Of a DNA stretch of 64,000 nucleotides, positions 8,471-61,837 are shown piece after piece. Within the stretch, counting starts at the first letter, position 1, and the number at the start of each line of letters is the position of its first letter. Source of the stretch: Acidimicrobiia bacterium (GTDB taxonomy: Bacteria > Actinomycetota > Acidimicrobiia > IMCC26256 > JACDBD01); assembly GCA_035316025.1 (NCBI GenBank), contig DATFXL010000070.1, positions 7,547 to 71,546 on the forward strand, in the 5' to 3' direction. Under the pieces are notes generated by a model that was not told the origin of the DNA, ran no database searches, and saw only the letters and a program-made list of their open reading frames with translations. The position numbers and the translations under genes were made by a program.

Positions 8471-9184
8471 GTGGTACGAGCCGCGCCTCGACAGTCCGGC
8501 GCACTGGCCGAGCTCACCGAAGAGATCGTCGAGTGCCGCGCGTGCCCGCGCCTCGTCGAATGGCGTGAGGCGGTGGCTCGTGAGAAGCGTGCCGCGTTTC
8601 GAGACGAGGCGTACTGGGGGCGACCCGTCCCCGGCTTCGGCGACCCCCGCGCCCGGCTCCTTGTCACCGGACTCGCGCCGGCCGCCCACGGCGGCAACCG
8701 CACGGGCCGCATCTTCACCGGCGACCGCTCGGGCGATTGGTTGTTCGGTGCGCTGTACCGGAACGGCTACGCCAATCAGCCGACCTCCCTCAGCGCCGAC
8801 GACGGGCTCGAGCTACGCGACGCGTACGTCGCCGCCGCCGTCCGGTGCGCGCCGCCGGCAAACAAGCCGACGCCGGCCGAGCGCGACCGGTGCCTGTCGT
8901 ACCTCGTGCGCGAGCTGGAGCTGCTCGACCGGGTGCGGGTCATCGTCGTGCTCGGACAGTTCGCCTACGACGCCACCGCCCGCGTCCTCGCCGCCGGTGG
9001 GTCGTCACTCCCGTCCCCCCGTCCCCGGTTCGGCCACGGCGTCGAGGTCGAGTCGGACCGGGCCGTCGTCCTCTGCTGCTATCACCCGAGCCAGCAGAAC
9101 ACGTTCACCGGCAAGCTGACGGAGTCGATGCTCGACGCCGTGTTCGCGCGGGCGCGCTCACTTTCGACGCGCTCCCGACGCTAG
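8471..9184 (+). CDS. Uracil-DNA glycosylase superfamily protein, Fe-S family 4/5 (UdgB-like)
   Basis: ECRACPRL cysteine cluster, GLAPAAHGGNRTGRIFTGD active-site loop (the GLAPAxHG form is typical of family 5), and C-terminal HPS..N motif (CCYHPSQQN). Confidence 0.75.
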   Translation: MVRAAPRQSGALAELTEEIVECRACPRLVEWREAVAREKRAAFRDEAYWGRPVPGFGDPRARLLVTGLAPAAHGGNRTGRIFTGDRSGDWLFGALYRNGYANQPTSLSADDGLELRDAYVAAAVRCAPPANKPTPAERDRCLSYLVRELELLDRVRVIVVLGQFAYDATARVLAAGGSSLPSPRPRFGHGVEVESDRAVVLCCYHPSQQNTFTGKLTESMLDAVFARARSLSTRSRR

Positions 9185-10062
9185 ACCACCAGCGCCACGA
9201 TCTCCCCGACGCCGTACACGATCGCGATCGAGCCGAGCCCGATCGCGACCGTCAAGCGCAGGCCTCGCTCACTGGAGCGGATCGCGAGGTGCGCGCCCAG
9301 CTGCGCACCCGGGATCACCGCGATCGCGAGCGGGATCGCGAACGCCCAGTCGATGTTGCCGAGCACTGCGTGGGTGATCATCCCGGGGATGGCCAACGCG
9401 CCGACGCACAGCAGCGACGTCGCCACCGACTCCTTCACGGTGAGCCGCACCCAGCTCGCGAACGCCGGCACCAGCAGCACGCCGCCTCCGATGCCGAGCA
9501 GGCCGCTGACGCCCCCGGCGGCCAGCCCGATCAGCCCGAGGCGCCAGACCTCGTCCCGGCGGGCCGCCGGCGACGACCGGTCCGGCTCCGGGTCGTGGGC
9601 GCGGGCGATGTCGACGGGCGGGGTGGCCAGGTCGCCGACCGGATCCTCGAAGTCGATGGCGGCGGGCGCGGGCTCCCGTGCCGGCGCCGAGCGGGGGGCC
9701 GCGCCCAGCCGGTACGCCGTGAACGCGAGCAGGGCGGCGGTGATGAGCATGAGGAGATGGCCGCCGCCGGGCACCGTACCCGCGAGCAGCGCCCCGCCGA
9801 CGGTCGCCGCCAGCCCCGCCGCCAGCGTCCAGCGTGCGACGCGGCCGACGATCAGCCCCTCACGCCGGTACCGCAGCGATCCACTCACCGCCGACGGGAC
9901 GATCGACGGGAGGGTCGATCCGACCGCCTCGAGCGGCGTCGCACCGAGGGCGCGGATCGCCGGCGTCGAGACCACGGCGCCGCCGACGCCGAACATGCCC
10001 GAGAGCACGCCCGTCGCCACGCCCGCGACCAGTGTCAGGATCGTGCTCCAGGGTTCCGACAT
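9181..10062 (-). CDS. TauE/SafE-family sulfite/anion exporter membrane protein
   Basis: 293 aa. Two Gly-rich 4-TM halves (GMFGVGGAVV, GLLGIGGGVLLVP) are joined by a Pro/Asp-rich loop. Confidence 0.75.
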   Translation of the reverse strand: MSEPWSTILTLVAGVATGVLSGMFGVGGAVVSTPAIRALGATPLEAVGSTLPSIVPSAVSGSLRYRREGLIVGRVARWTLAAGLAATVGGALLAGTVPGGGHLLMLITAALLAFTAYRLGAAPRSAPAREPAPAAIDFEDPVGDLATPPVDIARAHDPEPDRSSPAARRDEVWRLGLIGLAAGGVSGLLGIGGGVLLVPAFASWVRLTVKESVATSLLCVGALAIPGMITHAVLGNIDWAFAIPLAIAVIPGAQLGAHLAIRSSERGLRLTVAIGLGSIAIVYGVGEIVALVV

Positions 10063-53226: not shown

Positions 53227-54132
53227 GTGCGCCGGCTCCCTCCGCTGATGGTCGCGATCACGCTCGTCGTCGCGTTGTGGGGCGGCGACGCGTTCGCCGC
53301 CGATCGGCGCGACCTCAGCGCCTACCGCGGGCTCGGGACGTGGGTGGACGTCTTCGACTACGTGCCCGCGTTCCAGAGAGCGGGAGACACGCCGGCGGTC
53401 ACGACGGCGAGTTTCGACGACATGGCCCGTCTCGGCGTGAAGACCGTCTACCTACAGGCCGCGCAGGACGACGAACGTTCACCGGGCGACACGATCGACC
53501 CGAAGCTGTTGGGCCGCATGCTGCAAGCCGCGCACAAGGCCGACCTGCGCGTCGTCGCGTGGTACCTGCCCCACTTCTCCGACGTGAACGCGGACCTGCG
53601 GCGTCTGCGCGCCCTGATGTCGTTCAAGTCCAACGGCCAACAGTTCGACGGCGTCGCCGTCGACATCGAGTACAACCGCGACGTCACCGACACCAACGAT
53701 CGCAACACCGCGCTCATCGATCTCTCGAGACGCCTGCGCCGCGCCGCCGACGACCGTCCCGTGGGCGCGATCGTGCTCGAGCCGGTGTTCCTCGAGGTCG
53801 TCAGTCCCGACTATTGGCCCCAGTTCCCATGGCGGAGGTTGTCCTCGCTGTACGACGTGTGGCTGCCGACGTCGTACTGGACGAACCGCAGCGCCGACTC
53901 GGGCTACAAGGAAGGCTTCAAGTACACGGACGAGAACATCCGCGGGCTCCGCGAGAACCTCGGGGACAAGAACGCCCCTGTTCACGCCGTGGGCGGGATC
54001 GCGGACTCCGCGCTCCCCAAGGACGAGGCGGGATTCCTGCGCGCCGCCAAGAAGGACCGCGCTATCGGTTGGTCGATGTACGACTACAACACCACGGTCA
54101 GCTCGGCCTGGCCCACCCTCCGGAAGGGCTAA
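53227..54132 (+). CDS. Secreted protein with a glycoside-hydrolase-like TIM-barrel pattern (function unknown)
   Basis: Signal peptide ([25 protein letters not shown]). Alternating beta-strand motifs ([36 protein letters not shown]). The family assignment is only my recollection of GHL/DUF4015-type proteins. Confidence 0.5.
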
Positions 54133-55211: not shown

Positions 55212-56843
55212 GTGACCACGTCACGCGACCGCTGGCGGGCAGCGTTCGAGCGCAGCAACCGGCGCGAAGCCGACTTCGACACCATGTCGGGGCTGCCCCT
55301 CGCGCCGGTCTACGGGCCCGACGACGGGGAGTTCCCCGGCGAGTGGCCGTACACGCGCGGTCCGTACGCGTCGATGTACCGATCGAAGCTGTGGACGATG
55401 CGGATGTTCGCCGGCTTCGGCACCGCGCCCGACACCAACCGCCGGTTCCGGGAGCTCCTCGCCGCCGGCGGCGACGGGCTCTCGACCGCCTTTGACCTGC
55501 CCACCCTCATGGGGCGCGATTCGGACGATCCCCAATCGCTCGGCGAGGTCGGCAAGTGCGGCGTCGCGATCGACACGCTCGCCGACATGGAAGACCTCTA
55601 CCGCGACATCGACCTCTCGAAGGTCACGACGTCGATGACGATCAACTCGCCGGCCGCGATCCTGCTCGCGATGTACGTGACCGTCGGCGAGCGCGGCGGC
55701 GCGTTCCGGCGCGACCTCGGTGGCACGCTCCAGAACGACATCCTCAAGGAGTACCAAGCGCAGAAAGAGTTCATCTTCCCGCCCCGCCCGTCGATGCGGA
55801 TCGTCGCCGACACGATGCGCTTCTGCACCGCAGAGATGCCGCGGTGGCACCCGATCTCGGTTTCCGGCTACCACATCCGTGAAGCCGGGAGCACCGCGGC
55901 TCAGGAGCTTGCCTTCACGCTGGCAAACGGGTTCGCGTACGTCGAGGCGGGGACGGCGGCGGGGCTGGCCGTCGACGACTTCGCGCCCCGTTTGTCGTTC
56001 TTCTTCAACGCGCACATCGACTTCTTCGAAGAGATCGCCAAATACAGAGCTGCGCGACACATCTGGGCCCGGTGGATGCGGGACCGCTACGGCGCCCGGG
56101 CCGAGCGTTCGCTCCAACTCCGCTTCCACGCCCAGACCGCGGGCGTGTCGCTCACCGCGCAGCAACCCGAGGTAAACGTCGTCCGGACGGCGATCGAAGC
56201 GCTCGCCGGCGTGCTCGGCGGCACGCAGAGCCTCCACACGAACTCGATGGACGAGGTGCTCGCGCTCCCGACGGAGAACGCGGCGCGGCTCGCGCTGCGA
56301 ACTCAGCAGGTCGTCGCGTACGAGACCCGCGTCGCGAACGTCGCCGACCCGCTGGGCGGGTCGTGGTTCGTCGAGGAGCTGACGGACGAGATGGAGCGGC
56401 AAGCGGAGGTGGTCTTCGCGCACCTGGACCGCCTGGGCGACGGCTCGCTCCTCGAGGGCGTCTTCCGCGCGATCGAATCGGGGTGGTTCCAGAGCGAGAT
56501 CGCCGAGTCGGCCTACGAGCTCGAGCGCAAGGTGAACGACGGCCGCCACCTCGTCGTGGGCGTCAACGTGGCGACGCAGGGCGGCGACGAGGTGCCGGAG
56601 ATCCTGCGCATCGGTCCTGAGGTCGAGGAGACACAGCTGAAACGGCTGGCCCGCGTGAAGGCCGACCGCGACGATGCCGCAGTCGATCTCGCGCTGGCGC
56701 GCGTGCGGAGCGTCGCCGCCGAGCCCGACCTCAACCTCGTGCCGAGCTTCCTCGAGGCGGTATCGACGCAGGCGACGGTGGGTGAGATCGTCGGCGCACT
56801 GGCCGATGTGTTCGGCCGCCATCGCGAACATCCCGTCATCTGA
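55212..56843 (+). CDS. Acyl-CoA (methylmalonyl/isobutyryl-type) mutase large catalytic subunit, no B12-binding domain
   Basis: GTG at 55212 (alternative 55203). Has [36 protein letters not shown] and [10 protein letters not shown]. It ends at about 543 aa, without the C-terminal cobalamin-binding domain. Confidence 0.85.
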
Positions 56844-56845
56844 GG

Positions 56846-57463
56846 ATGGACGTCCGTCTCCTGGAGGTCGCGCGGACGGCCAAGGGCTTCATGCCCGACG
56901 ACGAGGGGCTCGCCCTCCACGGCGTGGGGCTCGCGGCTGCGTCCGTCGGTCCGCTGCTCGAGATCGGCAGCTACTGCGGCAAGTCGGCGGTGTACCTGGG
57001 TGCAGCGGCGCAAACGGGCGACACGGTGCTCTTCAGCGTCGACCACCACCGAGGCTCCGAGGAGAACCAGGCCGGGTGGGAGCACCACGACACCGACCTC
57101 GTCGACCCCGACACCGGGCGCATGGACACGTTTCCGTTCTTCCGGCGCACGATCGAGCGCGCCGGACTGGAAGACGCGGTCATCGCCGTCGTCGGAGACT
57201 CGTCCACGGTCGCCGCGCACTGGCGGACGCCGCTCGGCCTCGTCTTCGTCGACGGCGGCCACGCCTTCGACGTCGCACTCGCCGATTACGAGTCGTGGTC
57301 GCCCCACCTCGCACCGGGCGGCGTGCTCGTCTTCCACGACGTGTTCGAGGACCCTCGCGACGGCGGGCAGGCGCCGTTCGAGGTCTGGAAGCGCGCCGTC
57401 GCGTCTGGCGAGTTCACCTCCGTCTCGGCGACGGGCAGCCTGCGCGTGCTGCGACGGAAGTGA
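56846..57463 (+). CDS. Class I SAM-dependent methyltransferase (O-methyltransferase/Methyltransf_24-like)
   Basis: LEIGSYCGKSAVYL SAM-binding motif, and VFVDGGH with VLVFHD typical of cation-dependent OMT-like enzymes. It starts 3 nt after the mutase stop. Confidence 0.75.
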   Translation: MDVRLLEVARTAKGFMPDDEGLALHGVGLAAASVGPLLEIGSYCGKSAVYLGAAAQTGDTVLFSVDHHRGSEENQAGWEHHDTDLVDPDTGRMDTFPFFRRTIERAGLEDAVIAVVGDSSTVAAHWRTPLGLVFVDGGHAFDVALADYESWSPHLAPGGVLVFHDVFEDPRDGGQAPFEVWKRAVASGEFTSVSATGSLRVLRRK

Positions 57464-57472
57464 CGCTTCGAG

Positions 57473-58573
57473 CTAATCGCGCTTGCGCGCCATCTCCTCT
57501 TCGATCGCGGCGCCGGCTGCGAGCAGTTCGGCCGGCGTGAGGCCGAGGGGGAGACCCTCGCCGCGGAAGAACCCCGCCGTCGGGCCGTCGCCGGCCAGCG
57601 CGTTGGCGGCGAGCACGACCGCGGCCGAGTTCCACGTCGGCTGCTCGACCGGGAAGAGCTCGCCGCCGCGGTCGAAGTCGTCGCGGTCGAAGTTGGCACC
57701 GGTCCAGTAGCCACCGCCGTCGGCGCGCAGGAACTGGACCCAGCCGAGGAGCTCGCGCGCCTCGTCGTGGGCACCGATCGCGTCGAGCGCCATGACGAGC
57801 TCGCACGTCTCGGCGGCGGTCACCCACGGCCGGTCGGAGACGCAACGCGCGCCGCGGCCCTCGACGACGAACGTGGTCCAGCCGGCCGCGATCCGCGCGT
57901 GCGCGGCGTGGCCGCGCAGGACGCCGCCGAGGACGGGGTAGTACCAGTCCATCGCCCAGCGGCCCTTGTCGAGGAAGACGTCGGGCCGGTGCGCGACGGC
58001 GATGGCGAGAGACCCGAGCGAGAGCTCCCAGTCCGGGCGCTCGTGACCGAGGTGCTCGGCGACCGCGATGGCGCATCGCAGGCTGGCATGGAGGCTCGAC
58101 GAGCCGGTGAGGAGGGCGCCGTCGTCCGGGTCGTCGCCCCGCCAGGCGATCTCGCCCGTCTCCGTCTGGTAGTCGAGCGTGTAGTCGATGGCGCGCTCGA
58201 CGACGGGCCAGAAGTCGTCGAGGAAGGCGCGGTCGCGCGTCGTCAGGTAGTGGTGCCAAGCGCCGTTCGCGATGTAGCACGTGACGTTGGTGTCGAGCGT
58301 CCGGTCCTTGACGGCGTCGCCGACGTAGTACGCGTGCCAGGCTCCGTCCCGGCGCTGCCGGATGCGGAGCCACTCGTACGCCCGCTCGGCCTCGGCGTGG
58401 CGGCCGCCCACGTCGAGCGCCATCGCCGCTTCCACCAGGTTCCAGGGGTCCGTGTGGTGGCCGGGGATCCACGGGATGTTGCCGTCTGGTAGCTGGACGG
58501 CGGCGATCGCGTCGACCGTCGCCGCCAACTCGTCGGCGGTCACGATTCCTTCGACGGTGGACAGCGTGTTCAT
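57473..58573 (-). CDS. Prenyltransferase/squalene-oxidase-repeat (terpene-cyclase alpha/alpha-barrel fold) protein
   Basis: Starts at the internal ATG 58573..58571 (MNTLSTVEG). Has several QW-like repeats (QLPDGNIPW, RQRRDGAW, QTETGEIAW, RADGGGYW) and a DDPDDGA stretch resembling the class II DxDD(T/G)A motif. Its start overlaps the stop of the upstream methyltransferase. Confidence 0.7.
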   Translation of the reverse strand: MNTLSTVEGIVTADELAATVDAIAAVQLPDGNIPWIPGHHTDPWNLVEAAMALDVGGRHAEAERAYEWLRIRQRRDGAWHAYYVGDAVKDRTLDTNVTCYIANGAWHHYLTTRDRAFLDDFWPVVERAIDYTLDYQTETGEIAWRGDDPDDGALLTGSSSLHASLRCAIAVAEHLGHERPDWELSLGSLAIAVAHRPDVFLDKGRWAMDWYYPVLGGVLRGHAAHARIAAGWTTFVVEGRGARCVSDRPWVTAAETCELVMALDAIGAHDEARELLGWVQFLRADGGGYWTGANFDRDDFDRGGELFPVEQPTWNSAAVVLAANALAGDGPTAGFFRGEGLPLGLTPAELLAAGAAIEEEMARKRD

Positions 58574-59283
58574 GGGAGCTTCTCCGTATAGACGACGAGG
58601 CTCTTCCCGAGCACCGGGTTCAGCGTCCGGTCGAGCACCCGGGCCCAGCGCGGGCGGTTGGTCAACTCCCATACGAGGAAGTCGTGGTACTTGCGCACCG
58701 GCAATGCGTCGGCGTTGTCGACCCCGACCGCGCACTTGAGCATCCAGTACGGCGAGTGCAGGGCGTGCGCGTGGTGCGAGCCGCGCAACACCAACCCGGC
58801 CCGCAGGACCTTGGCCTCGAGCTCGGGCTGGTGGTAGATCCGGACGTGCCCCCCGGGGGTGTCGTGGTACCGGTGGTCGAGTGCCCAACAGACGCGCTCC
58901 GGCCACCGGGTCGGAACGGTGACGGCCATGCGCCCGCCGGGCCGCAGCACGCGCACGAGCTCTCCCAGCGCGCGCTCGTCGTCGGGGATGTGTTCGAGCA
59001 CCTCGGCCGCGATCACGCGATCGAAAGACTCGTCGGGGAAGGGCAACGTGAGCGCGTCGCCGTTGACCATGCCGCCCGCAGGCCCGTGCGGCAGCTCACC
59101 GGCGTCGACCATGCCCCCGGCGACGGCGGACGCGTCCTTGAGCTCGGCGGCGTCGGCGTCGAGGGCGACGACGACGGCGCCCCGCCGCATGGCCTCGAAC
59201 GCGTGCCGTCCGCCGCCGCATCCGAGGTCGAGGAGGGTTTGCCGGTCGCGCAGATCGAGACGATCGAAGTCGACGGTCAGCAT
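58570..59283 (-). CDS. Class I SAM-dependent methyltransferase (Methyltransf_11-like)
   Basis: Starts at the internal ATG 59283 (MLTVDFDRLD). SAM motif LLDLGCGGGRH, with acidic loop VVALD and LRPGGRM. It is coupled to both neighbours by overlapping stop/start codons. Confidence 0.8.
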   Translation of the reverse strand: MLTVDFDRLDLRDRQTLLDLGCGGGRHAFEAMRRGAVVVALDADAAELKDASAVAGGMVDAGELPHGPAGGMVNGDALTLPFPDESFDRVIAAEVLEHIPDDERALGELVRVLRPGGRMAVTVPTRWPERVCWALDHRYHDTPGGHVRIYHQPELEAKVLRAGLVLRGSHHAHALHSPYWMLKCAVGVDNADALPVRKYHDFLVWELTNRPRWARVLDRTLNPVLGKSLVVYTEKLP

Positions 59284-60554
59284 CAGGTCGCCGCCGTCTC
59301 GTGCGCGTCGAGGAGAGCGCGGTAGTGGTCCACGGTGCCCTCGGCGGTCTTGCGCCAGGTGAACCGCTCGAGCACCCGCTGGCGTCCGGCGGCTCCGATC
59401 CGCGACCGCAGTTCGGCGTCGTCGAGCAGGTGCCCGAGGGCGCCGGCGAGCGCGGACGGGTCTGCCGGCGGAACGAGCAGAGCGGTCTCGCCGTCGCGCC
59501 CGACCACCTCCGGCAGCGCGCCACCAGTCGTGGCAACGATGGGCACGCCGCAGGCCATCGCCTCGACGGCTGGAAGCGAGAACCCCTCGTACAACGAGGG
59601 CACGGCGGCGACGTCCGCCTGCGCGTACAGCTCGACGATGCGCTCCGTCGTCACGCCGTGCACGAACTCGACCGCGCCGTCCAGCCCGAGGCGATCGATG
59701 AGCGCCGGGATCCTGCTTCGTCCCTTGGGCTTGCCGATGACGACGAGGCGGGCGTCGTCGCGCTCGGTGCGGAGCTTGGCGACCGCTTCGAGCAACGGGG
59801 CGAGGCCCTTCATCGGGACGTCGGCGCTGGCCGTCGTCATGATGCGGCCGGGCACACGGCGGACCTCGGGGCGGGGCCGGAAGACCGCCGGGTTGGCTCC
59901 CACCGGGACGACATGGAGGCGGCCCGGGTCGACGTGCATCTCCCGGACGATGTCGCGTCGGGAAGAGTCGGAAACCGTGAGCAGCCGCGGGATCTGCCGG
60001 GCGACGCGCGTTTGCATGTCGATGAAGCCGTACCAGCGGCGCAGTGTGACGCGCTTCCACGCGCGCGTGGCGTACTCGAGATCGAGGTCGCGATCGACGG
60101 TCACCGGGTGGTGCAGGGTCGCCAGCATCGGCCAACCGTCTTCGACGAGCTTGGCCAGGCCGGTGCCGAGCGACTGGTTGTCGTGCACGACATCGAAGTC
60201 GGCGCGCCGGCTCCGGAGGAGCCGCCGTACTCGGAGGCTGAACGTGTACGGCTCGGGAAATCCGGCGGCGCACATGATGCCGAACTCGGTGACGTCGATT
60301 CGGGTCTTGAACTCCCAGGGCCACGGAACGCGGAACGGGTTCTCGGGGCGGTACAGGTCGAGGCTCGGCACCCGTGTCAGCTGCGACGGATCGACCAGCT
60401 CCGGGTAGGGCTGTCCCGAGAACACCTCGACGGTGTGACCGAGCTCGGTGAGCTCGCGTGCGAGCTCCCGCGTGTACACACCTTGTCCACCGCAGTGCGG
60501 GTTGCCGCGGTACACCAGGTAGGCGACACGAAGGGGCTGATCCGGGCGCGGCAC
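59283..60554 (-). CDS. GT4-family (GT-B, retaining) glycosyltransferase
   Basis: GTG at 60554 (VPRPDQPLRVAYLVY). Has GGQGVYTRELARELTELGH and the EX7E region (PSLYEGFSLPAVEAMACGVPIVAT). Confidence 0.8.
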   Translation of the reverse strand: MPRPDQPLRVAYLVYRGNPHCGGQGVYTRELARELTELGHTVEVFSGQPYPELVDPSQLTRVPSLDLYRPENPFRVPWPWEFKTRIDVTEFGIMCAAGFPEPYTFSLRVRRLLRSRRADFDVVHDNQSLGTGLAKLVEDGWPMLATLHHPVTVDRDLDLEYATRAWKRVTLRRWYGFIDMQTRVARQIPRLLTVSDSSRRDIVREMHVDPGRLHVVPVGANPAVFRPRPEVRRVPGRIMTTASADVPMKGLAPLLEAVAKLRTERDDARLVVIGKPKGRSRIPALIDRLGLDGAVEFVHGVTTERIVELYAQADVAAVPSLYEGFSLPAVEAMACGVPIVATTGGALPEVVGRDGETALLVPPADPSALAGALGHLLDDAELRSRIGAAGRQRVLERFTWRKTAEGTVDHYRALLDAHETAAT

Positions 60555-60629
60555 GAAGGAGCAGCCTAGTGGCGGGGGAGGGCCGGGTAGCCTCCGGGCA
60601 ATGCCTCTGCTCGGCGAGCCCGACGCTCG

Positions 60630-61271
60630 GTGAACACGATCTACGCCGGCCCGAAGCGCGGGGCGGACCGGGCGGTGCTCTTGGCGCACGGCGCCGGATC
60701 CGACATGCACGCGGCGACGCTGGAGCACGTCGCCGACGCGCTCGCGGCCGTGAAGGTCCCTTCGCTCCGTTTCAACTACCCGTACCGCGACGCGGGCAGG
60801 AAATCACCCGACCGCGCCGCGGTGCTCGACGCCGCCACTCGGGAGGCCGCCGCCGAGCTCGCGCGCGTCACGAAGCTGTCACCTGAGCGGCTCGTGCTCG
60901 GCGGTCGGTCGATGGGCGGCCGGCACTGCTCGCTCGTCGTCGGCGACGACCAAGACCCGGTGCCGGCCCTCGGGCTTCTCCTGCTTGGATATCCGCTTCA
61001 CGCCGCCGGGAAGCCCGACCAGCCGCGTATCGAGCACTTCCCGCGCCTGCGGGTCCCGTGCCTGTTCGTGAGCGGGACGCGTGACTCGCTCGCGTCGCAT
61101 GACGCGCTGACGACCGCGGTGAAGGCGATCAAGGGACCGGTGACCATGCACTGGCTCGAGTCGGCCGACCACGGCTACCGGCCGAAGAAGTCTTCAGGAC
61201 GGACGGCCGACGAGGTAGCCGCCGAGGTTTCGGACGTCTCGGTGCGGTGGGTGCAGTCGCTCCCCGGGTGA
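60630..61271 (+). CDS. Alpha/beta hydrolase (KANL3/Tex30 / dienelactone-hydrolase-like)
   Basis: LLAHGAGSDM, nucleophile elbow GGRSMGG, and C-terminal ADHGY. Confidence 0.7.
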   Translation: MNTIYAGPKRGADRAVLLAHGAGSDMHAATLEHVADALAAVKVPSLRFNYPYRDAGRKSPDRAAVLDAATREAAAELARVTKLSPERLVLGGRSMGGRHCSLVVGDDQDPVPALGLLLLGYPLHAAGKPDQPRIEHFPRLRVPCLFVSGTRDSLASHDALTTAVKAIKGPVTMHWLESADHGYRPKKSSGRTADEVAAEVSDVSVRWVQSLPG

Positions 61272-61300: not shown

Positions 61301-61837
61301 CTAGTCCCCGGTCTGGCCGTCGATCTGTTCGCGCATCAGGTCGAGATGGCCCGCGTGGCGCGCCGTCTCTTCGAGCACGTGGACGAGGATCCACCGCAGC
61401 GACACGTGTCCATAGAAGGGCGAGACACCCACGCTGATGTCGTCCAGGGACGGCGTCGTGGCGACGATGCGCCGCGAGTGATCAGTCGACTCGCGATAGA
61501 ACGCCACGATCCCGCCGACGGTGTCATCGGGTTCGATGCGGAAGAAGCCGAGCGGATCCTCGTCGCGCGACGCGGTGTCGATCTCCTCGCCGGCGAAGCG
61601 CTCGCGGAACCAGCTTTGTTCGACGTCGCCGAGGTGCTTCACGATCCCGAGCAGGCTGAGGCCTGTGGGCGTCATGATCCGGCTGGCGTCCTCCAGTGAC
61701 AGCGCCGACACCTTGTTCTCGACGACGCCCCGGTACCAGTCGAGGTAGCCGGAGAGCAGGGCCCGCTCGTTCGCTTGACCTCCGAGGTCGGGCGAGTCGG
61801 CCACGGCCGGAGCGTAATCCGACAGGACATGCGTCAC
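61301..61837 (-). CDS. DinB/DUF664-family (mycothiol-dependent-transferase-like) protein
   Basis: 178-aa four-helix-bundle pattern with a His triad context (GIVKHLGDVE, VLEETARHAGHLDLMRE). Confidence 0.7.
   Translation of the reverse strand: MTHVLSDYAPAVADSPDLGGQANERALLSGYLDWYRGVVENKVSALSLEDASRIMTPTGLSLLGIVKHLGDVEQSWFRERFAGEEIDTASRDEDPLGFFRIEPDDTVGGIVAFYRESTDHSRRIVATTPSLDDISVGVSPFYGHVSLRWILVHVLEETARHAGHLDLMREQIDGQTGD

Follow-up and report, generated by a model that had tools for sequence, protein, structure and literature searches.

At positions 56846..60554 of a 64,000-nucleotide stretch from an Acidimicrobiia bacterium (assembly GCA_035316025.1, contig DATFXL010000070.1; the whole stretch is called the window below), four adjacent genes, manT, meT3, mmpH and meT1, make up a complete set (Table 1). 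We consider it very likely that this locus is an orthologue of the four-gene cluster for 3-O-methylmannose polysaccharide (MMP), first defined in non-tuberculous mycobacteria, and that it works by the mycobacterial mechanism. This assignment rests on the homology of three of the proteins to solved and characterised enzymes, on conserved residues that have been validated by mutation, on the fold of the third protein and on synteny. The GC content of the window is about 70%. The four genes are real and not chance open reading frames of such a genome, because each has strong homologues and because their arrangement is conserved in dozens of genomes.

An earlier reading of the letters (the original prediction) had pointed to three minus-strand genes chained by overlapping stop and start codons, to a second S-adenosylmethionine (SAM)-dependent methyltransferase gene converging on them, and to a shared pathway of sugar transfer and methylation. 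Direct reading of the sequence confirmed the overlaps, and the convergent gene indeed encodes a methyltransferase (Pfam Methyltransf_24, PF13578, E=9e-26). The shared pathway can now be given a name: the three genes and the convergent methyltransferase gene correspond to the MMP cluster. The same reading had not recognised a characterised pathway in the gene combination, which is nevertheless that of the published manT/pmeT3/mmpH/meT1 cluster (PMC9883506 and a 2019 study cited there).

Maranha et al. 2023 (PMC9883506) reported that this cluster makes the cytoplasmic MMP by means of a 1-O-methyltransferase (meT1), an endomannosidase (mmpH, earlier called OrfA and listed as an 'unknown protein'), a putative 3-O-methyltransferase (pmeT3) and an alpha-1,4-mannosyltransferase (manT). 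In their model, termed 'partially conservative replication', mature MMP is cut by MmpH to defined oligomannosides, which ManT elongates and MeT1 caps. A mutant of Mycobacterium smegmatis in mmpH contained no MMP and grew more slowly at 15 °C (PMC9883506).

Table 1. Genes, junctions and residues of the cluster in the window (Mh, M. hassiacum; aa, amino acids; nt, nucleotides)
Feature	Position	Strand	Description
manT	59283..60554	-	GTG start, 423 aa; predicted GT4 (GT-B fold) alpha-(1->4)-mannosyltransferase of MMP
meT3 (pMeT3 orthologue)	58570..59283	-	237 aa; class I SAM-dependent, putative MMP 3-O-methyltransferase
mmpH	57473..58573	-	366 aa; predicted (alpha/alpha)6-barrel MMP hydrolase, endo-alpha-(1->4)-mannosidase
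meT1	56846..57463	+	205 aa; predicted MMP 1-O-methyltransferase, would cap the reducing end; convergent on the operon
TGATG junction	59281..59285	-	manT stop TGA (59285..59283) and meT3 start ATG (59283..59281) with the A in common
ATGA junction	58570..58573	-	mmpH ATG (58573..58571) and meT3 stop TGA (58572..58570), 2-nt overlap
GGAG Shine-Dalgarno	58582..58585	-	within the meT3 3' end, 8 nt 5' of the mmpH ATG
Spacer, 9 nt	57464..57472		separates the convergent meT1 and mmpH stop codons
ManT Thr303 codon	59646..59648	-	position of Asp293 (Mh); among 77 loci, Thr shared with the five closest relatives alone
MmpH D42-P-W44-N45 codons	58439..58450	-	active-site loop Asp47-Pro-Trp49-Asp50 (Mh)
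MmpH Asn45 codon	58439..58441	-	position of Asp50 (Mh); column Asn 39, Asp 15 of 57 ungapped representatives
MmpH DDPDDGA codons	58115..58135	-	aa 147-153; variable acidic loop shortly before the helix starting near T156
MmpH E255-T-C-E258 codons	57800..57811	-	catalytic base Glu262 and Glu265 (Mh)

Homology, fold and active site of the third protein

In a phmmer search of the PDB, the product of mmpH matched entry 7QSJ, 'Methylmannose polysaccharide hydrolase (MmpH)', over residues 5-359 with E=4.3e-103. Its BLASTP identity to M. hassiacum MmpH is 49%; here, as for MeT1 and ManT below, identities were computed against the M. hassiacum sequences taken from the PDB-match alignments. An AlphaFold2 model, built from an alignment of 43 MmpH-family sequences (alignment A1), shows a single (alpha/alpha)6 helical barrel with a mean predicted local distance difference test score (pLDDT) of 94.8 and a predicted template modelling score (pTM) of 0.93. 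When this model was compared with the PDB by Foldseek, 7QSJ was the top match, with a template modelling (TM) score of 0.90-0.96 and a root-mean-square deviation (rmsd) of 1.4 Å. All further matches stayed at a TM score of 0.69 or below: rhamnosidases, other (alpha/alpha)6 glycosidases, phosphorylases and sugar isomerases reached 0.6-0.69 at an rmsd of 4-6 Å, the class II terpene cyclases drimenyl-diphosphate synthase (7XR7) and squalene-hopene cyclase (8PAK) 0.52-0.53 at 8-9 Å, and the squalene-hopene cyclase entries 2SQC/3SQC about 0.3. Judged by its sequence and its modelled fold, the third protein is MmpH, an endo-alpha-1,4-mannosidase and a close homologue of 7QSJ.

Individual residues were followed through the family in an alignment that set the window protein and M. 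hassiacum MmpH beside 65 nearly full-length representatives, drawn from a library of homologues clustered at 50% identity. The counterparts of the catalytic base Glu262 and of Glu265, E255 and E258, are invariant in alignment A1 and are Glu in 55 of the 60 ungapped representatives. The position of Asp47, D42 in the window protein, holds Asp in 54 of 57 ungapped representatives, and both D42 and W44 (Trp49) are invariant in A1. Three residues after D42 the window protein carries Asn45 at the position of Asp50; Asn is the majority state of the family at this position, and Asp50 does not define the family. The M. hassiacum variant E262A is inactive and the variants D47A and D50A lose most of their activity, and the authors left undecided whether Asp47 or Asp50 is the catalytic acid (PMC9883506). 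Since position 50 is mostly Asn and the equivalent of Asp47 is nearly invariant, the family comparison favours Asp47, not Asp50, as the general acid. Among the subsite residues, W44, N96, T156, M208, Y212 and W314 are kept (Trp49, Asn101, Thr163, Met215, Tyr219 and Trp315 in M. hassiacum). Phe102 is the exception, with Val97 in its place; the family varies at this position (F 22, V 18).

With the glycoside hydrolases of clan GH-L (the GH15 glucodextranase 1ULV and the GH125 exo-alpha-1,6-mannosidases 3QT9 and 3QRY) MmpH has in common the (alpha/alpha)6 barrel, a Glu as general base and an inverting-type water network (PMC9883506). In NCBIfam, the model of an 'oligosaccharide amylase' resembling GH15 matched the window protein weakly (E=3.8e-15, far under the cut-off). 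In contrast to the members of this clan, to which its identity is about 10%, MmpH acts in endo fashion, has an extra subsite and is without the Arg/Asp pair of the -1 subsite.

ManT and the two methyltransferases

The window ManT matched PDB entry 7QSG (M. hassiacum ManT) over residues 8-412 with E=1.2e-136, at a BLASTP identity of 56%, and contains the Pfam domains Glycos_transf_1 (E=5e-37) and Glyco_transf_4 (E=2.5e-21). The molecule label of 7QSG in the PDB is 'D-inositol 3-phosphate glycosyltransferase'; the entry neighbours 7QSJ, and we take it to be the ManT structure of the same paper. The window protein keeps Gly15, His142, Lys240, Glu313 and Glu321 as G22, H148, K249, E323 and E331, and 74-76 of the 77 loci compared keep them too; the variants K240A and E321A are reported to be inactive (PMC9883506).

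One position of ManT stands out. Asp293 occupies a column with Asp in 66 and Glu in 5 of the 77 loci, and Thr, as in Thr303 of the window protein, occurs solely there and in the five closest relatives (L001, L002, L004, L005 and L006). The contact of Asp293 with the guanine N2 of GDP-mannose (guanosine diphosphate mannose) was inferred from Asp253 of PimA, without mutagenesis (PMC9883506). Thr303 may represent a lineage-specific change in nucleotide-sugar recognition, and by this analogy the donor specificity could differ. It does not exclude the protein from ManT, because Asp293 is an inferred and not a validated determinant.

MeT1 matched the PDB entries 6G7D/6G80/6H40 over residues 6-204 (E=1.7e-65; 53% BLASTP identity). 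These carry just the title 'Methyltransferase domain protein', and we take them to be M. hassiacum MeT1. The middle gene encodes a protein with the Pfam domain Methyltransf_11 (E=1.4e-22), which has the sugar O-methyltransferase 6UV6 (E=2.5e-13) among its best matches of known structure and is 52% and 58% identical to its syntenic homologues in Mycobacterium sp. (L044) and in a member of the Mycobacteriales (L047). We infer that it is the putative MMP 3-O-methyltransferase. None of the four proteins has a model of its own in NCBIfam; the matches there were all distant and far below the cut-offs, and MeT1 had none.

Conservation across Actinomycetota

Related loci were sought in genomes taken at one per GTDB species, which gave at least 600 matching stretches; the MmpH homologues found at E<=1e-30 fall into 365 clusters at 50% identity. 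The four window proteins were compared by tblastn with 80 loci, the best of these at least 600 as ranked by MmpH, so that the counts below describe linkage given MmpH and not prevalence. The 80 loci come from metagenome-assembled genomes (MAGs) of Acidimicrobiia, Microthrixaceae and Iamiaceae, and from Streptomyces, Embleya and Mycobacterium/Mycobacteriales. Many of the closest relatives among the matches listed are Acidimicrobiia MAGs; no identical copy of the window MmpH is on record, the nearest one (88%) comes from L001, a MAG that bears the label Actinomycetota, and several MAGs under the label Acidimicrobiia follow at 76-78%.

The order manT-meT3-mmpH is collinear in 74 of the 80 loci; the three-gene linkage, whose restriction to this genome would have counted against the original prediction, is strongly conserved. 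Of the remaining six, five had no full-length manT match, the available upstream sequence being mostly too short, and one (L009) showed mmpH only. A meT3 homologue lies between manT and mmpH in 78 loci. The complete arrangement, with meT1 convergent downstream (ManT+ MeT3+ MmpH+ MeT1-), was found in 52 loci from Acidimicrobiia, Streptomyces and Mycobacteriales, with L044 (Mycobacterium sp.) and L047 (Mycobacteriales) among them, and agrees with the published order of the locus tags MHAS_04402-04405; with four further loci that had no manT, a convergent meT1 stands 3' of mmpH in 56. The genes are also tightly packed, although the junction gaps are approximate, since start codons were extrapolated from the window numbering: at the median, manT and meT3 are estimated to lie about 2 nucleotides apart, with a gap of zero or below in 38 of 77 loci, and between meT3 and mmpH the estimate stays within 30 nucleotides in 72 of 80. 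The range of the cluster is thus far wider than one would expect from a literature centred on mycobacteria. Acidimicrobiia are not mentioned in the 2023 paper (PMC9883506), and in the papers available to us we found none later on MeT3, on MMP outside Actinomycetes or on a wider distribution.

The comparison with the known mycobacterial clusters (M. hassiacum MHAS_04402-04405, M. smegmatis MSMEG_6481-6484 and M. avium MAV_2755-2758, with the structures 7QSG, 7QSJ and 6G7D) is close. The four genes, their order and their orientation are equal, as in L044, where the stop/start overlaps are equally tight; the window proteins share 49-56% identity with the enzymes of known structure and keep the catalytic residues that have been validated, and MmpH has the same fold. 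The window differs in its host class, Acidimicrobiia, in the Asn for Asp50 of MmpH and in the Thr for Asp293 of ManT. The Streptomyces clusters (L031, L043, L052 and L061-L080) share the collinear manT-meT3-mmpH order, with proteins 49-59% identical to those of the window, but their meT1 lies further downstream, 2.7-5.6 kb from mmpH and beyond unrelated genes, whereas in the window the two genes abut, 9 nucleotides apart. Streptomyces griseus is reported to make an acetylated MMP (AMMP) by means of a homologous cluster (PMC9883506). In the mmpH-meT1 gap of one Streptomyces locus (L066, 7029..9804) we found an Amidase_3 gene (8778..9767, minus strand) and a weak DUF5336-like open reading frame, and recognised no acetyltransferase there that could account for AMMP.

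Another polymethylated polysaccharide of mycobacteria, the methylglucose lipopolysaccharide (MGLP), resembles MMP in being cytoplasmic and in being built by a GT4-type alpha-1,4-glycosyltransferase and SAM-dependent sugar O-methyltransferases (general knowledge and PMC9883506). It differs in being a glucose polymer with acyl groups that is encoded by different genes, and no protein of the window matched MGLP enzymes better than MMP enzymes. We know of no MmpH-like recycling hydrolase in the MGLP system.

Gene junctions and surroundings

The two stop/start overlaps of the minus-strand genes plausibly give coupled translation, which would match the stoichiometry of the three operon products. The start of manT is without a visible Shine-Dalgarno sequence, and its position is therefore uncertain by a few codons. 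At the other end of the operon, the stop codons of meT1 and mmpH are only 9 nucleotides apart, and no terminator-like hairpin was found anywhere in 56700..60800; the transcripts of both strands would therefore overlap. A scan of the same interval for promoter and terminator consensus sequences returned nothing, a result that is uninformative in an actinobacterial genome of 70% GC.

Upstream of manT, just 75 nucleotides (60555..60629) separate its GTG from a divergent Abhydrolase_11 gene (60630..61271, plus strand). This interval, in which the scan found no sigma-70 consensus, may serve both genes as a divergent promoter region; alternatively, the manT transcript may be leaderless. Further on, a minus-strand gene (61301..61837) encodes a DinB-fold protein that matches the Pfam family of mycothiol-S-transferases (MST) with E=3e-41, which suggests by homology that mycothiol, or a low-molecular-weight thiol akin to it, is in use in the organism. 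On the other side, the cluster is preceded by an ATP synthase operon, glpX and a gene of the methylmalonyl-CoA mutase family; between atpC and glpX there is an open reading frame of 301 amino acids (53227..54132, plus strand) with a signal-peptide-like N-terminus and no Pfam match at E<=1e-4.

Discussion

Based on the correspondence of the locus with the mycobacterial cluster, we infer that the organism makes MMP or a close variant of it. ManT would extend oligomannoside primers longer than three units with alpha-1,4-linked mannose from a nucleotide-mannose donor, which is GDP-mannose in mycobacteria; the middle methyltransferase would 3-O-methylate the added mannoses, and MeT1 would cap the chain by methylating the 1-OH at its reducing end. 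MmpH, as an inverting-type endo-alpha-1,4-mannosidase, would then cleave the mature chains to oligomannosides, which could be reused as primers by ManT and MeT1 in a self-recycling scheme.

Several observations weigh against this assignment. MMP has been detected solely in Mycobacterium, and in its acetylated form in S. griseus, never in Acidimicrobiia, and the activity of pMeT3 is putative in the literature and has been demonstrated in no organism (PMC9883506). The 49% identity of the window MmpH falls slightly under the 50% cut-off that the authors applied in their own search for clusters (PMC9883506). In addition, the protein carries Asn45 in place of Asp50, although the exchange D50A strongly lowers the activity of the M. 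hassiacum enzyme, and ManT has Thr303 in place of the Asp inferred to contact the guanine.

These substitutions could also be taken as the mark of a different product. The enzymology would then be the same and the polymer an MMP-like one that differs in chain length, in decoration (as AMMP does) or in the nucleotide-sugar donor, with the lineage-specific substitutions reflecting this difference. Thr303, confined within the 77 loci to the window and its five closest relatives, would fit such a variant, as would the Val97 in a subsite of MmpH, and the acetylated product of the homologous S. griseus cluster (PMC9883506) is a precedent for it. However, the mutationally validated catalytic residues are all kept, as are most subsite residues, no extra tailoring gene such as an acyltransferase lies in or beside the cluster of the window, and Asp293 itself is assigned its role by analogy with PimA. 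We therefore consider a variant polymer unlikely, if the most serious of the alternatives. Another possibility starts from the fold: as an (alpha/alpha)6-type glycoside hydrolase with many catabolic enzymes among the related folds, the MmpH homologue could be a catabolic glycosidase for exogenous mannans, whose place beside the transferases would have nothing to do with a self-recycling biosynthesis. This is very improbable, as its N-terminus (MNTLSTVEGIVTADELAA...) is without a signal peptide, its gene is probably coupled in translation to a methyltransferase gene and holds a fixed place in the four-gene cluster over at least 74 loci, and deletion of mmpH in M. smegmatis abolishes MMP (PMC9883506).

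The original prediction had considered the third protein a possible class II terpene-cyclase-like enzyme, or an isoprenoid or lipid binder, and the product a possible methylated glycosyl-isoprenoid or polyprenyl-linked glycan. Its description of the protein was accurate: the 366 residues form a single-domain alpha/alpha barrel in the AlphaFold2 model and contain four QW-like repeats (amino acids 27-35, 70-79, 136-144 and 280-290, by a loose regular expression). A distant likeness to class II terpene cyclases and prenyltransferase beta-subunits (2SQC/8PAK, 7XR7; PF13243, PF13249, PF00432), which have alpha/alpha barrels with QW-like repeats, is indeed there. The Pfam domains SQHop_cyclase_N and SQHop_cyclase_C match at E about 1e-3, Foldseek lists drimenyl-diphosphate synthase and squalene-hopene cyclase at E about 1e-6, and homologue records at NCBI bear the name 'prenyltransferase' (P0015, P0053, P0084, P0086, P0091 and P0094). 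Yet the cyclase profiles score below their gathering cut-offs (18.5 against 26.2 and 17.2 against 26.1 bits for PF13243/PF13249), no better than the equally sub-threshold GH95 and GH116, and the cyclase structures superpose at a TM score of about 0.52 and an rmsd above 8 Å, far from the values for MmpH and below those for the glycosidases. The architecture is that of one barrel, in contrast to the two domains of the cyclases. The DDPDDGA stretch is present as described, but its resemblance to the DxDD(T/G)A motif is coincidental: it aligns with 'SPSGLYEE' of M. hassiacum MmpH, its D/P/D/D columns are heterogeneous with no residue in more than 29 of the 65 representatives, and by this comparison it is a variable acidic loop and not a catalytic or DxDD motif. 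Finally, hydrolase activity has been demonstrated in the orthologue, whose catalytic residues the window protein retains. Profile and structure searches placed the protein in a family whose known function is non-terpenoid, a result that the original prediction had itself set as its refutation. We rejected the terpene-cyclase interpretation, whose chance of being right is very small, and no evidence speaks for a product that is an isoprenoid or polyprenyl-linked. The accompanying idea of a non-cyclase use of the fold, as a binder of lipid or glycan, came closer, in so far as the protein is predicted to be no cyclase and to act on a glycan, which it would however cleave rather than bind.

For the MMP assignment, the cyclase likeness, real only at the level of the barrel fold, probably explains the NCBI name. 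'Prenyltransferase' is a fold-level mis-annotation that is misleading for genome mining, and the proper name is MMP hydrolase (endo-alpha-1,4-mannosidase); some homologues at JGI are already named 'MMP endo-(1,4)-3-O-methyl-alpha-D-mannosidase' (P0005, P0060, P0072, P0096, P0113 and P0119).

In summary, the locus is an ordinary member of a known system. What looked like an uncharacterised gene combination is a published pathway with three solved structures, and the main value of the analysis is in this sense negative; the new points are modest, namely the presence of the cluster in Acidimicrobiia-type genomes, Asn as the majority state at position 50 of MmpH and the lineage-specific Thr in ManT. 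Within the Actinomycetota, the Acidimicrobiia form a deep-branching class, for the most part uncultured, that environmental metagenomes commonly contain. We lean, by a narrow margin over doubt, towards the wider picture in which Acidimicrobiia make an MMP-type polymethylated polysaccharide by self-recycling, the ManT of the window lineage is altered at nucleotide recognition, possibly for another sugar donor, and the Asn50 of the family settles Asp47 as the general acid. If this is true, MMP, so far regarded as a 'mycobacterial' trait, would be a widespread feature of the phylum, and the functions proposed for it, fatty-acid buffering and cold adaptation among them, would need to hold well beyond mycobacteria.

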